A DNA stretch of 32,000 nt, taken from NCBI RefSeq assembly GCF_036323395.1, contig NZ_AP028907.1, forward strand, positions 270,001 to 302,000, in the 5' to 3' direction. Made by a program: the position numbers and the translations under genes. The notes under the pieces were generated by a model. The model did no database searches, was not told the DNA's origin, and saw only the letters and a program-made list of their open reading frames with translations. The DNA comes from Pyrodictium abyssi. GTDB taxonomy: Archaea > Thermoproteota > Thermoprotei_A > Sulfolobales > Pyrodictiaceae. The stretch's first letter is position 1. Every line of letters starts with the position of its first letter. This document shows positions 1,010 through 31,760 of this stretch, in pieces.

Positions 1010-4140
<3,131 letters not shown>

Positions 4141-4281
4141 TGAGACCCGCCCAGGGCGGGGTCCAGGGCCCGGTCTAGCCGGCCCCTGGGCCCTACCTCC
4201 GCCCACCGGGCCCGTTTGGGCCCCCAGGCCCGGGATAGCAGGGCAACCGGTAGTGGCCCGTTGCGGGCCCCTTGCAGCCAC
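4141..4281 (-). other. 16S-23S internal transcribed spacer, no tRNA
   Basis: Contains the 5' strand of the 23S processing helix (4158-4173, 4181-4190) and the 3' strand of the 16S processing helix (4199-4242). No cloverleaf or T-loop motif is present. Confidence 0.8.
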
Positions 4282-5778
<1,497 letters not shown>

Positions 5779-8122: not shown

Positions 8123-8199
<77 letters not shown>

Positions 8200-8498
8200 C
8201 ACCCTCCATGAGTCTAGCTGGCAGACGCTATAACCGGTCTATAAGCGTTCCTCCCGGCAGCGCCTCCCGGGGAGTCCTTCAGGAGCGTCTGGCAGAGCCG
8301 GGGAGCCACGGGGCCCAGAAGCGGGGGCTCTGATGCGGGCCTTACCGCCATCCCCCGCGCCCTGGCGGGGTTAGCGAGAGCTAGCTGGGTCTTACAACCC
8401 GGGTTCCCTCTTCATGGCCCCCAGTTTGTACGCCGACAGCCCCGGGATACACTGCTATTTGCGGCGCGGCCGCCAGGCCCGGGGGAGGGGCACGGAGA

Positions 8499-8642: not shown

Positions 8643-8719
8643 GGCCGCCGTAGCTCAGCCGGTAGAGCGCGGGGCTGTGGACCCCGAGGTCCCGGGTTCA
8701 AATCCCGGCGGCGGCCCCA
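8643..8719 (+). tRNA. tRNA-His (anticodon GUG) with encoded G-1 and CCA
   Basis: Sequence: G-GCCGCCGTAGCTCAGCCGGTAGAGCGCGGGGCTGTGGACCCCGAGGTCCCGGGTTCAAATCCCGGCGGCGGC-C-CCA. The anticodon loop is CTGTGGA. An extra 5' G (G-1) lies opposite discriminator C73, which is the His identity feature. Confidence 0.95.
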
Positions 8720-9065: not shown

Positions 9066-9406
9066 GGCCCCCGGGCCCCGGCTGGCCGCCGACGGGCCCC
9101 TTAGGGGGCCCGAGGAAACTCCGCCCTCCCCGCGGCACCGGGGCCCCGCAAGGGGCGCGGGTGACACCCGCGGCAACGGCACAGAAACGGCACGCCCGCC
9201 CGCGGGAGGACGGTGATGCGGCGAGGGCCCGCCGGCGACGGCGGGCCAGTAACCCGCTGAGGACCCGGGCGGGTGCGTTGAAACGGCCGTCCCCTGGGGA
9301 GCAAGGCGGCGCGCCGATGAGGGCCGCGCGAGTGGCGCGCCGGGGACCGCTTAGTCGAATGCGGCCGTAGGTACAGAAGGCGGGTTATAGCCGGGGCCCG
9401 GGGGCC
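9066..9406 (+). ncRNA. rnpB: RNase P RNA (archaeal type A-like)
   Basis: P1: 9066-9083 (GGCCCCCGGGCCCCGGCT) is the perfect reverse complement of 9389-9406. P2: GGCCGC (9084) pairs with GCGGCC (9361). P3 hairpin: GGGCCCC-TTA-GGGGCCC. CR-I/P4 5' strand: GAGGAAACTCCGCC. CR-V/P4 3' strand: ACAGAAGGCGGGTTATAG. Length is 341 nt with very high G+C. Track ORFs 8945..9370(+) and 9101..9442(-) over it are low-complexity and spurious. Confidence 0.85.
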
Positions 9407-14478: not shown

Positions 14479-14566
14479 TGGTGCGGGGGGTGGGATTTGA
14501 ACCCACGCAGGCCTACGCCAGCGGGTCCTAAGCCCGCCCCCTTTGACCTGGCTCGGGCACCCCCGC
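14479..14566 (-). tRNA. tRNA-Leu (anticodon UAG), long variable arm, CCA encoded
   Basis: Reverse complement: GCGGGGGTGCCCGAGCCAGGTCAAAGGGGGCGGGCTTAGGACCCGCTGGCGTAGGCCTGCGTGGGTTCAAATCCCACCCCCCGCACCA. The anticodon loop is CTTAGGA. Confidence 0.95.
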
Positions 14567-24895: not shown

Positions 24896-25867
24896 CTAAT
24901 AGCGGGGCTTAACAGCAACTACACCCTGCGCCTTCTCGTTGTAGCGTATTCTTAGAAATCCTACACCACGTAGCCGCTGGATCACGCCCCTGACAACGGG
25001 TCCATGGCCATGTCCCCGGCTTCGTAGCGGCTCGCCGGTATAGTGGAAGAGCACACCTCCAGGCCTAAGCACGCGATACAGCTCTCTATAGAAATCGCTA
25101 CTATAGAGCTCGCCAGCTATACTAAATCTTGGCGGGTCATGAACTATCCTATCAAACACGCTGTCCGGGAAGAACTCTATAAGCTTACTCGCGTCACCAA
25201 GCATGATCTTTACACGGTTGTCCGCTAGCCTGGCACTCCAGGGATTGAACTCGGCTATTGCGAGCACCTCACGGCTAACCTCAATAGTGTATACTTGCTT
25301 TGCGCCAAACTCCAATGATGTTATAGCAGTATAGCCGAGACCAGTACATATATCTAATACTGTATGGCCGTGTCTTACACGTGCTGCTGCAACCTTGTAT
25401 CTAGCATCACGGAGAGGCCCAATGTCACTCACTCTATGCATATGTATGCCATTTATCATAAGTGTCGGTGCATCTACGCCTCGAGGGAAATGAAGCCTCA
25501 TATAGGCGTTGCTGAGCCTTACCTCTACAGGGTAGAGGGAACCATCTTTAGGCGATAAAACATAGACATGGTCTTCTCTTAGCGAGTTAACTATATCAGC
25601 ATTTATACGGATCAACTTGTCGCCCATCTTGGCTACAATAGTGTCATTAATACAACCTAGCGTTAAGCCGTTCAACTGGACCGGGTCGACAGTTTGATAA
25701 GCTCTACACCTTGCGGCAATGTCGACAATGACATAGCCTGGGACTACATTATGGTGCGGCTTAAACATGTACAGCTCTATGGAAGGTGTATCTTCGTTGA
25801 CAGGATAATCTGTCATGACTGGTAGCCATGCTGCTACACTGCCGGCTAGAGTCAGATATAGCCTCAT
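24896..25867 (-). CDS. class I SAM-dependent methyltransferase (DPPxF type) with an N-terminal domain of about 170 aa of unknown function
   Basis: SAM motif I VLDICTGLGYTA, motif IV IVHDPPRFS, motif LRPGGVLFHYTG. The DPP(R)F motif suggests an exocyclic-amine (N-methyl) RNA/DNA methyltransferase. I cannot assign the substrate. Confidence 0.7.
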   Translation of the reverse strand: MRLYLTLAGSVAAWLPVMTDYPVNEDTPSIELYMFKPHHNVVPGYVIVDIAARCRAYQTVDPVQLNGLTLGCINDTIVAKMGDKLIRINADIVNSLREDHVYVLSPKDGSLYPVEVRLSNAYMRLHFPRGVDAPTLMINGIHMHRVSDIGPLRDARYKVAAARVRHGHTVLDICTGLGYTAITSLEFGAKQVYTIEVSREVLAIAEFNPWSARLADNRVKIMLGDASKLIEFFPDSVFDRIVHDPPRFSIAGELYSSDFYRELYRVLRPGGVLFHYTGEPLRSRGHGHGPVVRGVIQRLRGVGFLRIRYNEKAQGVVAVKPRY

Positions 25868-25895
25868 AAATAAGTGCAGATGCGGTCATAGCCGT

Positions 25896-25975
25896 GGGGG
25901 GTGTGATGTACACGACTCTCTCTGAGTCTACATTCGCGCAGTGTCGATGATGTAGGAGGTTTCGGCTGACCCCCT
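25896..25975 (+). ncRNA. C/D box sRNA candidate 2 (2'-O-methylation guide, 16S rRNA)
   Basis: The 5' GGGGGG (25896-25901) pairs with the 3' CCCCC (25970-25974). C box GTGATGT is at 25903-25909, then the 12-nt guide ACACGACTCTCT and D' CTGA at 25922-25925. After a 21-nt spacer come C' ATGATGT (25947-25953), the 12-nt guide AGGAGGTTTCGG and D box CTGA (25966-25969). The D guide has 10 contiguous nt antisense to 16S (identical to window 5406-5415). The TATA-like ATAAATAAG at 25866-25874 is about 26 nt upstream of the 5' stem. Confidence 0.75.
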
Positions 25976-26278
25976 AGTAACGCCTCTAAGCAAATTGTCT
26001 ATGTACATCTTAGCGGCGATAGCGTGCTTGCAGAGCCTATGGTACGTTGACGCCGGACAGGTGCATCGTAGATAGCCTCTTGCGGGATTGTAGTAAACGG
26101 TGTATACGTCCTTACTTCCTCGTACTGTGGCAACATATGCATCTGGACCAATTATCCTCACGTATACGAGTCTTCCTTGATTTATTATCCGGGCTGCCTC
26201 CAATAGCAGTCTTTTAGAGCCCCTGTAGCGGGCCTTGGAGCTACCTGGTATGGGAGCTACTGTATCCAGACGGTGCAC
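25928..26278 (-). CDS. SWIM zinc-finger domain protein
   Basis: CTCPASTYHRLCKHAIA fits the CxCxnCxH SWIM signature. 116 aa. Its last roughly 16 codons lie antisense to C/D sRNA candidate 2. Confidence 0.65.
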   Translation of the reverse strand: MHRLDTVAPIPGSSKARYRGSKRLLLEAARIINQGRLVYVRIIGPDAYVATVRGSKDVYTVYYNPARGYLRCTCPASTYHRLCKHAIAAKMYIDNLLRGVTRGSAETSYIIDTARM

Positions 26279-27303: not shown

Positions 27304-27966
27304 TCAGACTAGGGTAGCCTCTTCACAGCCCTTCCTCAATAAGTCTAGCATGGATGAGAAAGCTCTGCGTAGCCTATTGAGTTTGCGCTTACCTAGTAGT
27401 AGGTACGAGTTAAGCAGATTAGCAAGTAGGTTATAGTCCAAGTCAACAATGGTTCTACCTTCAAAGACTAGTGGTATGTCTATCCTCTCGGAGCCGATAA
27501 TGAACATGTAGTATGACCTTGAGGTATAATTGTAGCCGGTGTACTTATAGCCAGAGTTAATAGCTATGTCTGCTATCATGTCAGCTAGTCTAAGACTGCA
27601 TGTATGGAGCGCGAGTATTGGTGGCTGAGCAGAAGCCCACACGTACCTATGCCCAGTATTCCTGGCGTTGAGTATAGCCTCCCTAAGCTCAGCCGGGTCT
27701 ACTGGGCGATGCCACTTGTATACTATGCCTCCTTGCCGCTTATCTCCCGGAGATGGTGCAGAGAATACAGCAATCCGTCCGCTACAGGAGCTTGAAGTAG
27801 CTATGCACGGAACCGAGTTGATAGCAGCCAGCATGTCTACAATATCGGAGTCCAGCATATCTTCCTTCATGGCGTGGGTGAAGCTGTTCATAAGTTGTTC
27901 GCGGAGTCTTCTCCACGAGTCTGTACTACAAGTATTCAGCTGTAGAGCCGCACACATACAGAACAC
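27304..27966 (-). CDS. taw3: tRNA wyosine-derivative N-methyltransferase Taw3 (TYW3 family)
   Basis: DSDIVDMLAAINSVPCIATSSSCSGRIAVF contains the TYW3 signature (S/T)SSCSGR. The start (GTG 27966 or ATG 27957) overlaps the upstream ORF by 30-41 nt. Confidence 0.8.
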   Translation of the reverse strand: MFCMCAALQLNTCSTDSWRRLREQLMNSFTHAMKEDMLDSDIVDMLAAINSVPCIATSSSCSGRIAVFSAPSPGDKRQGGIVYKWHRPVDPAELREAILNARNTGHRYVWASAQPPILALHTCSLRLADMIADIAINSGYKYTGYNYTSRSYYMFIIGSERIDIPLVFEGRTIVDLDYNLLANLLNSYLLLGKRKLNRLRRAFSSMLDLLRKGCEEATLV

Positions 27967-29720: not shown

Positions 29721-30974
29721 ATGAAGGTTTATATCGTTGACCACTTTACCGGCAGCTACGCGCTCAGCGAGGACAAGAATCTAGTAGCCTACGAGCATGC
29801 ACCTAAGAGCCTTGACGATATGGTAGAGGAGGCGCTGAAGATAGAGCGCGGTGAGCCCACAGCAGCCTACCTAAGGCTCCTCGATAAGCTAAAGGAGATG
29901 GGCGTAGGAACGGTGGTTGTAGAGACCAGTGAGATGGCTAGAATAGCCTCTGGCAAGGGCTTCGAGGTAGAGGTTGAGCCCGCCAACGAGATAGCACGCT
30001 ACTTTAGAGGCCATGTCGTGGAGATAGCCACTAGTACCGAGTTCGTGAAGGATAAGGAGGAGTTCTACAAGCTTCTACACGAGTTCACAATAGAGACAAC
30101 TAGGAGGAAGCTACGCCGTGCAGCACAGAAGCGTGACCTGCTGGCAGCCCAGGCGATAAGAGCTATAGACGACATAGACAAGACGACCAACCTATTCGCC
30201 GCCAGGCTCCGCGAGTGGTACAGCCTACACTTCCCGGAGCTAGACGACCTCGTACGCGAGCACGAGGACTACGTCAAGATAGTAGCTGAGCTCGGCCACC
30301 GCGACAACATAATAGTTGAGAACCTCGTCAAGCTGGGCTTCAGTGAGGAGAAGGCGAAGAAGATAGCAGAGGCGGCGGCAAAGAGTATGGGTGCGGACTA
30401 CCCGGAGTTCGACATAGAGCCCATGCAGAGACTCGCTAGGATAACCCTAGAGCTATACAAGCTACGCAGAGACCTCTCAGAGTACATAGCCCAGGTGATG
30501 AAGGAGGTAGCGCCAAACATAACAGCGCTCGTTGGTCCACTGCTGGGTGCACGCCTCATAAGCCTGGCTGGCGGTCTAGAGGAGCTAGCCTACTTGCCAG
30601 CAAGCACTATACAGGTACTAGGCGCCGAGAAGGCCCTCTTCCGTGCTCTAAGGACTGGAGGCAAGCCGCCAAAGCACGGTGTAATATTCCAGTACCCGGA
30701 CATACACCGCAGCCCGCGCTGGCAGCGTGGTAAGATAGCTAGGGCACTAGCCGCTAAACTCGCTATAGCTGCTAAGGTAGACTACTTCACAGGCAGATTC
30801 ATCGGTGACAAGCTAAAGGAGGCGCTACGGAAGAGGATAGAGGAGATAAAGAGGATATACAAGAAGCCGCCAAAGAGGAAGGAAATCAAGCCGGCAAAGC
30901 CTGCAAAGCCAGCCCGCCCGGCCCGTGGTAGGAAGGGCAAGAAGGGTAGGAAGGGCAAGGGTAAGAGAAGGTAG
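29721..30974 (+). CDS. nop5: C/D box sRNP core protein Nop5 (Nop56/58 homolog) with Lys-rich tail
   Basis: LREWYSLHFPEL, ITALVGPLLGARLISLAGGLEELAYLPASTIQVLGAEKALFRALRTGGKPPKHGVIFQ. The C-terminus is KKPPKRKEIKPAKPAKPARPARGRKGKKGRKGKGKRR. GGAGGT lies 10 nt upstream of the ATG, and the TATA-like ACTTAAATAG is at 29657-29666. Confidence 0.92.
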   Translation: MKVYIVDHFTGSYALSEDKNLVAYEHAPKSLDDMVEEALKIERGEPTAAYLRLLDKLKEMGVGTVVVETSEMARIASGKGFEVEVEPANEIARYFRGHVVEIATSTEFVKDKEEFYKLLHEFTIETTRRKLRRAAQKRDLLAAQAIRAIDDIDKTTNLFAARLREWYSLHFPELDDLVREHEDYVKIVAELGHRDNIIVENLVKLGFSEEKAKKIAEAAAKSMGADYPEFDIEPMQRLARITLELYKLRRDLSEYIAQVMKEVAPNITALVGPLLGARLISLAGGLEELAYLPASTIQVLGAEKALFRALRTGGKPPKHGVIFQYPDIHRSPRWQRGKIARALAAKLAIAAKVDYFTGRFIGDKLKEALRKRIEEIKRIYKKPPKRKEIKPAKPAKPARPARGRKGKKGRKGKGKRR

Positions 30975-31052: not shown

Positions 31053-31760
31053 ATGGTAGAGGTAGTAAATGTTTACGAGCATGAGCGCTACAAGGGCGTC
31101 TATGTAGTCGAACTCGAGGACGGCTCTACGAGGCTGGCAACAGTAAACCTAGCGCCGGGGAAGAGGGTTTACGGCGAGAGACTCTTCAAGTGGGAGGACA
31201 AGGAGCTCCGTGAGTGGAATCCGTACCGTAGCAAGCTTGCTGCAGCGCTGCTCAAGGGTATAGAGGAGCTGCCAATCAAGCCGGGGCACCGCATACTATA
31301 CCTCGGTGCGGCTACGGGTACGACACCCAGCCATGTATCCGACATAATAGGTCTGGAGGGCAAGATCTACGCACTCGACGTAGCGCCGCGTGTGATGAGG
31401 GAGCTGATTGCCGTCTGTGAGACAAGGCCTAACATGCTCCCGCTACTGGCGGATGCTAAGAAGCCTTACGAGTATCGCCACATAGTAGAACTCGTTGACG
31501 GCATTTACGCTGACGTAGCGCAGCCGGAACAAGCAGAGATAGTGGCCGATAACGCGGACTTCTTCCTAAAAGAGGGCGGCTACCTCCTGCTAGCAATAAA
31601 GGCTAGGAGCATTGACGTAACAAAGGAGCCAAGCGAAGTATTCCGCAACCAGATAGAGGTGCTAAAGAACCGTGGCTTCGAGATAGTAGACATGGTCCAT
31701 CTAGAGCCCTTCGACAAGGACCACGCTATGGTATATGCCCGCTACAAGCCTCAGAAGTAG
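31053..31760 (+). CDS. flpA: fibrillarin (rRNA/tRNA 2'-O-methyltransferase)
   Basis: REWNPYRSKLAAALLKG, ILYLGAATGTTPSHVSDI, IYADVAQPEQAEI, LLAIKARSIDVT. It has its own TATA-like TTTTGATATATTAAT at 30987-31000. A T-run (CATATTTTAGC) lies about 20 nt after the stop. Confidence 0.95.
   Translation: MVEVVNVYEHERYKGVYVVELEDGSTRLATVNLAPGKRVYGERLFKWEDKELREWNPYRSKLAAALLKGIEELPIKPGHRILYLGAATGTTPSHVSDIIGLEGKIYALDVAPRVMRELIAVCETRPNMLPLLADAKKPYEYRHIVELVDGIYADVAQPEQAEIVADNADFFLKEGGYLLLAIKARSIDVTKEPSEVFRNQIEVLKNRGFEIVDMVHLEPFDKDHAMVYARYKPQK

Follow-up and report, generated by a model that had tools for sequence, protein, structure and literature searches.

A probable dual-guide C/D box sRNA gene with a long D'-C' spacer in a Pyrodictiaceae archaeon

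The plus-strand segment 25896-25975 of the DNA analyzed here, a 32-kb stretch referred to below as the window, is very probably a functional dual-guide C/D box sRNA gene of a Pyrodictiaceae archaeon, as judged from its sequence and that of its relatives. The locus predicts two 2'-O-methylation sites beside helix 5 of the 16S rRNA (equivalent to A60 and A364 of E. coli). In archaeal genomes too few C/D box sRNAs are annotated, and the locus is a well-supported addition to them. It represents a routine gain in annotation and leaves current understanding unchanged.

Archaeal dual-guide C/D box sRNAs were reportedly described by Omer et al. and Gaspin et al. in 2000. The window sRNA shares with this class the four boxes (C, D', C' and D), a pair of 12-nt guides, targeting by the box+5 rule and a K-turn with its terminal stem. 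As in other members, its rRNA targets lie near each other in the secondary structure and it overlaps the 3' end of a gene in antisense. It differs in two respects: the D'-C' spacer is 21-22 nt long, whereas a short K-loop is usual, and the seventh base of both C and C' is U. Archaeal C/D box sRNAs have been catalogued (Dennis et al. 2015, PMC4644070; Lui et al. 2018, PMC6009581), and no paper on the C/D sRNAs of Pyrodictiaceae was found in the literature library searched. There is precedent for the class and its mechanism, as well as for the target site and the antisense overlap. What is new is a family member with a long-spacer variant in one lineage.

Read directly, the segment has the layout GGGGGG U GUGAUGU ACACGACUCUCU CUGA GUCUACAUUCGCGCAGUGUCG AUGAUGU AGGAGGUUUCGG CUGA CCCCCU (Table 1). 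An earlier note on this DNA had described a textbook set of C/D elements here, and all of them are present. The terminal stem of five G:C pairs that it proposed is also found, extended by one wobble pair (G25896:U25975). Its 3-nt bulge holds if the first two bases of the C box are counted in, the bases unpaired before the sheared G-A being U25902, G25903 and U25904 (a K-turn bulge of UGU); otherwise it does not, a small difference of layout. The core pairs of the K-turn (the G-A/A-G core, U-U and the Watson-Crick pair C6:D1) are in place for C and D. The C box fits the RUGAUGA consensus at six of seven positions, and the exception, the seventh base, is outside the K-turn core; C' likewise has U rather than A there. 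Both guides are exactly 12 nt, within the 10-12 nt range of archaeal guides (PMC7994747).

Table 1. Coordinates in the window of the sRNA elements, the 16S rRNA targets and the neighboring features
Feature	Position	Strand	Remark
Terminal stem, 5' strand GGGGGG	25896..25901	+	pairs with 25970-25975
C box GUGAUGU	25903..25909	+	kept in all family members
D' guide ACACGACUCUCU, 12 nt	25910..25921	+	10 contiguous pairs with 16S 53-62
D' box CUGA	25922..25925	+	invariant in the family
D'-C' spacer, 21 nt (22 nt to UGAUG)	25926..25946	+	lineage-specific insertion of ~16 nt
C' box AUGAUGU	25947..25953	+	read directly and found by pattern scan
D guide AGGAGGUUUCGG, 12 nt	25954..25965	+	10/10 Watson-Crick with 16S 364-373
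D box CUGA	25966..25969	+	read directly
Terminal stem, 3' strand CCCCC(U)	25970..25975	+	read directly
16S rRNA gene, target RNA	4282..5778	-	Rfam RF01959, 1467.8 bits
D-guide target, 16S 364-373	5406..5415	-	predicted site A367 = window 5412 = E. coli A364
D'-guide target, 16S 53-62	5717..5726	-	predicted site A56 = window 5723 = E. coli A60
SWIM zinc-finger ORF	25928..26278	-	Pfam SWIM at residues 71-92
TATA-like ATAAATAA, candidate promoter	25866..25873	+	centered ~26 nt upstream of G25896
TATA-like AGATATAG	25854..25861		better conserved than the 25866-25873 element
nop5	29721..30974	+	Pfam Nop, E = 3.6e-75
fibrillarin	31053..31760	+	Pfam Fibrillarin, E = 2.1e-106

The box pattern TGATG-N13-CTGA-N3..30-TGATG-N13-CTGA occurs once in the 32 kb when both strands are searched, and 100 shuffles that preserve dinucleotides do not contain it. 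With the criteria relaxed to one mismatch per box, guide lengths of 11-13 nt and spacer lengths of 2-25 nt, the sRNA locus was again the sole match, and 20 shuffles gave none. When the whole RNA is folded by minimum free energy, the result is no better than for shuffles (z = -0.43), which is expected because K-turns are not modelled in the folding. At gathering scores, Rfam detects no C/D family in the window or in 12 homologous loci. In an E-value scan, four of the five sub-threshold matches in the region are to C/D families, all on the plus strand. The best of these are SNORD35 (RF00211; 24.1 bits against a gathering score of 36) and sR11 (RF01150; 18.0 against 39), which cover the same plus-strand coordinates and share the general C/D layout with the window sRNA. 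Because both score below gathering and their guides are unrelated, the window sRNA is a member of neither.

The archaeal rRNA operon lies on the minus strand of the window, with the 23S gene at 1040-4146 beside the 16S gene. The D-guide core GGAGGUUUCG (GGAGGTTTCG in DNA) recurs in the window only inside this 16S gene, at 5406-5415. There the D guide forms 10 Watson-Crick pairs through guide positions 2-11 upstream of box D, and the perfect complementarity claimed earlier is confirmed at 10 of 10 positions. The D' guide forms 10 contiguous pairs (nine Watson-Crick and one G:U) with 16S 53-62, in the UGGGAGUCGUGC region, again through positions 2-11 from its box. The stretch of it that the family conserves (CACGACUC, positions 4-11) lies within this pairing with 16S. 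Both guides have at least 8 bp of rRNA complementarity covering position 5 upstream of D or D'. The D' guide had been regarded as a near-orphan whose best match was 8 nt in the 23S rRNA (1500-1507); that match exists and is superseded by the 10-bp pairing with 16S, which rules the orphan reading out.

The box+5 rule points to A367 for the D guide and A56 for the D' guide, and a check of the register agrees with the earlier assignment of the A opposite window position 5412. Alignment to E. coli rrsH gives the equivalents listed in Table 1. According to the Rfam structure line, A56 is unpaired in the junction between helices 5 and 6. A367, also unpaired, belongs to the GAAAC junction, which has the 3' strands of helices 5 and 4 before it and helix 15 after it. 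The two nucleotides are 311 nt apart in the sequence and are neighbors in the 16S secondary structure, both beside helix 5.

The matches were compared with null guides run against 16S plus 23S. A first null, in which G:U counted as half a pair, gave 5-12%; it was too lenient and was replaced by a stricter run statistic. Runs of 10 or more Watson-Crick pairs that include position 5 arise for 1.0% of shuffled guides and 1.9% of random 12-mers from the window, so that the earlier estimate of under 1% was slightly optimistic. When one G:U is admitted, the corresponding values are 4.9% and 9.0%. Each guide match alone is only moderately improbable. A chance origin of the two together, in identical register, is unlikely.

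Genes for two protein partners of C/D sRNPs, nop5 and fibrillarin, lie 3.7-5.8 kb from the sRNA; an L7Ae gene was not found in the 32-kb window. In the established C/D sRNP mechanism, L7Ae is followed by Nop5 and fibrillarin on each motif, and methylation takes place opposite guide position 5 (PMC7994747, PMC6009581). Given this mechanism and the presence of nop5 and fibrillarin in the window, Am56 (D' guide) and Am367 (D guide) are predicted in the 16S rRNA. In the folded transcript, C and D would make up a K-turn that the G/C terminal stem closes, and C' and D' an internal K-motif. L7Ae would bind both and recruit two Nop5-fibrillarin units. Each 12-nt guide would then pair with nascent 16S rRNA, and fibrillarin would methylate the 2'-OH of the nucleotide that faces guide base 5, counted upstream from D or D'. 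Because both sites are in junctions beside helix 5, the RNA may also act as a chaperone that holds the two 16S segments together during folding, as in the published model of dual guides bridging distant strands (PMC7994747). Two further genes nearby, for TYW3 (27304-27966) and a class I SAM methyltransferase (24896-25867), make up, with nop5 and fibrillarin, a local cluster of RNA-modification genes, which has the same arrangement in contig L001.

A check of conservation had been proposed earlier, and in related genomes the boxes and both guides are kept while the spacer and the flanks vary. The close relatives are contigs L001-L004 and L019 (labelled Pyrodictium delaneyi MAG), whose neighboring proteins are ~90% identical to those of the window. 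Their sRNA core is identical to that of the window, the sole change being a G run that is 2 nt shorter. The closest lineage has 91.4% DNA identity over 3.3 kb, yet all 67 positions of 25903-25969 are identical (P ~0.002).

More distant copies were sought with a pattern that covers C', the guide and D only (TGATG-NN-GGAGGTTTCG-N-CTGA), applied to 185,579 species genomes and to JGI metagenomes. The genome scan gave 32 matches, 29 of them archaeal, and the metagenomes added 38. The D guide is found in the same register in 29 archaeal genome contigs and in about 30 metagenome contigs. Upstream of the searched module, 12 distinct sequences have three further elements that the search pattern did not cover: a C box, a guide with the CACGACUC core and the D' box CUGA. 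Where record titles name a source, the members of this two-guide family come from Pyrodictiaceae and other Desulfurococcales (genome and metagenome contigs). The changes in the D' guide of L030 and L034 are C-to-U transitions that keep the pairing as G:U, and the variable 3' end of this guide (UCU, ACU, AAC or AAA) is not part of the 8 bp that pair with 16S 55-62. The window sRNA has both features of the family, the CACGACUC core of the D' guide and the GGAGGUUUCG D guide, together with the SWIM/methyltransferase synteny found in Pyrodictiaceae. A sequence model (R1) made from ten family members, with the window lineage left out, matches 25903-25969 over its full length (42.7 bits, E = 1.2e-12), with 16 nt of the spacer as an insertion.

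Synteny extends the comparison. In five other Pyrodictiaceae loci the sRNA is likewise antisense, between the SWIM and methyltransferase genes and beside ubiA and an MTAP gene. Homologues of the methyltransferase are found in Pyrodictium occultum (58%), Hyperthermus and Pyrofollis, which indicates Pyrodictiaceae as the family of origin. A search with the SWIM protein matched the window protein itself and one 91% relative; more distant relatives of the locus were reached by the DNA pattern scan and tblastn.

The Desulfurococcales and Pyrodictiaceae members (L005, L014, L021, L024, L028, L030, L034, L035, L062 and L073) have the same two guides and boxes as the window sRNA. Their spacers are shorter in comparison (5-11 nt; 6 nt in L024 and L034) and their terminal stems are often weak or absent. 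Unlike the window, L005 and L028 have an extra C-box/guide module upstream. In these two (L005:225-317 and L028:6715-6807 on the sRNA strand) the third module lies directly upstream and consists of GUGAUGA, a 13-nt guide CUAAGUUGGUUAG and UGAA, resulting in three C-box/guide units in tandem. No convincing target for this extra 5' guide was found in the rRNAs of the window. A metagenome copy, L055:1803-1900 (minus strand), is intact from D' through the spacer and C' to the D guide and D box; unrelated sequence takes the place of its C box and most of its D' guide, and it may be a decayed or rearranged copy. Within the window, the family model has a second match at 30475-30508 on the plus strand (12.9 bits, E = 0.0024; UCUCAGAG...GUGAUGAAGGAGGU). 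It is inside the nop5 coding region and is probably due to chance.

The feature that sets the window sRNA apart is its spacer. The unusual length reported earlier (21 nt) is borne out by comparison: the spacer is 21-22 nt, outside the short loop (K-loop) of archaeal C/D box sRNAs, whereas 30 other distinct sRNAs that share the guide have 4-12 nt. The long form is found only in the window and its closest relatives. The identity of the spacer between the two lineages is not significant alone (0.914^22, ~0.14). A hairpin or K-turn within the spacer was considered and rejected. A 5-bp ACAUU/AGUGU stem can be drawn; its energy is -0.7 kcal/mol at 37 C (z = +0.85), worse than most shuffles. The spacer is most likely a tolerated lineage-specific loop insertion. 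As such it offers a natural test case of how much loop the archaeal C'/D' K-motif tolerates. It is unlikely that the 16-nt insertion is non-neutral, whether by forming an internal stem that would make the motif a eukaryote-like K-turn with a long internal region, by being kept for the SWIM stop and tail, or by serving antisense control of SWIM and the methyltransferase. If it were, one locus would be shaped jointly by guide-RNA constraints and protein-coding or regulatory ones. The spacer also contains CUACAU (25928-25933), which exactly complements AUGUAG (25950-25955, the end of C' and the first guide base). With one G:U this makes a 7-bp pairing that could mask C', and its folding is no better than that of shuffles.

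The sRNA overlaps the SWIM ORF on the opposite strand by 48 nt, the stop codon plus 15 codons, close to the earlier count of about 16 codons. The end of the ORF is antisense to the D box, the D guide, the C' box and part of the spacer, and the spacer carries the complement of the stop codon (25928-25930). In relatives the SWIM stop is placed before the RNA (L034) or 25 nt (L021), 39 nt or 56 nt (L005 and L028) into it, the reading frames differ, and the tails are not conserved. The tail is a side effect of the ORF running on into a conserved RNA gene of the other strand. The overlap had been taken for a special oddity, which does not stand: its extent and frame vary across relatives, and overlap of C/D sRNAs with the 3' ends of genes in antisense is already documented in Pyrobaculum (PMC6009581).

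The TATA-like box that had been pointed out 26 nt upstream of the 5' stem is at that position. Its conservation does not hold in the nearest relative, which has three substitutions in ATAAATAA, and it is therefore only plausible as a promoter. The other TATA-like element, AGATATAG, is listed in Table 1. In other Pyrodictiaceae copies, A/T-rich elements precede the C box by 25-30 nt.

Three other explanations of the locus were weighed. One is that box-like motifs are clustered here by chance and that their conservation reflects nothing more than coding constraint on the C-terminus of the SWIM protein. The 3' half of the sRNA is indeed inside the opposite-strand ORF, and single guide matches are significant only at the 1-9% level. 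Against this, the box pattern is absent from all of the 100 and 20 shuffles, the 5' half is intergenic yet invariant, and relatives that keep the RNA read the SWIM tail in other frames or not at all. The E-value of the family model and the archaeal origin of 29 of the 32 genome matches point the same way. The comparative data effectively refute a chance cluster already, and we consider it extremely improbable. It is also quite unlikely that the RNA is an antisense regulator of the perfectly complementary SWIM-methyltransferase mRNA, beside or instead of guiding methylation. The RNA is antisense to the 3' end of SWIM and the intergenic region that separates SWIM from the methyltransferase gene, its antisense position is kept in Pyrodictiaceae, and regulation by 3'-antisense sRNAs has been raised as a possibility (Lui et al. 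2018, PMC6009581). However, the overlap ranges from 0 to 56 nt across lineages and therefore is itself unconserved, the conserved parts are the boxes and the rRNA-complementary guides, and the same guide is also found in unrelated genomic contexts.

A dual-guide sRNA that is decaying or half-active is the third alternative. Here the 16-nt insertion would disrupt the K-loop and lead to asymmetric assembly, with one site or none methylated. Because the spacer, at 22 nt, is outside the 4-12 nt range and without significant structure (its weak hairpin being no better than shuffles), the C'/D' module could be weakened, and the apparent loss of the 5' half in L055 indicates that decay occurs in the family. 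Yet all four boxes and both guides of the window sRNA are intact, and the core, including the spacer, is 100% conserved between lineages with differences at 8.6% of the surrounding positions. Eukaryotic C/D RNAs function with long internal regions, which also counts against impaired activity. We regard a decaying or half-active sRNA as very unlikely. A functional dual-guide sRNA with a tolerated insertion is the preferred reading.

The D guide of this sRNA is used more widely. NeqsR08 of N. equitans and MKAsR21 of M. kandleri, both detected by RNA-seq (Dennis et al. 2015, PMC4644070, Additional file 1), have an identical GGAGGUUUCG core, which occupies positions 2-11 counted upstream from a D or D' box. 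Because core and register are shared, the same 16S nucleotide is predicted to be methylated. These RNAs differ from the window sRNA in the partner guide, which is AGUCGUAGUGCG in NeqsR08, in the placement of the shared guide, which occupies the D' position in MKAsR21, and in their degenerate boxes (CAGA, CGGA). They are different sRNA families with one guide module in common. In DPANN lineages the same D guide is placed at D' and partnered with GAGAUAGCAGUG, and in other Desulfurococcaceae, Ignisphaera, Nitrososphaeria and Bathyarchaeia it occurs with still other partner guides. Since the guide recurs in many archaeal sRNAs, the A364-equivalent site is a widely shared predicted methylation site. 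Such varied combination of guide modules is a pattern reviewed by Breuer et al. 2021.

The DPANN-type sRNA (L016, L020, L022, L023, L025, L029, L031 and L032, with L041, L053, L060 and L065 from metagenomes) is itself well conserved. Its D guide is (G/A)AGAUAGCAGUG, for which no match was found in the rRNAs of the window, and the RNA lies just downstream of where a conserved opposite-strand ORF starts. The window contains further genes for structural RNAs: RNase P RNA at 9073-9399 and tRNA genes at 8127-8200, 8644-8716 and 14482-14566. The last of these is 85 nt long against a 71-position model, possibly owing to a long variable arm or an intron.
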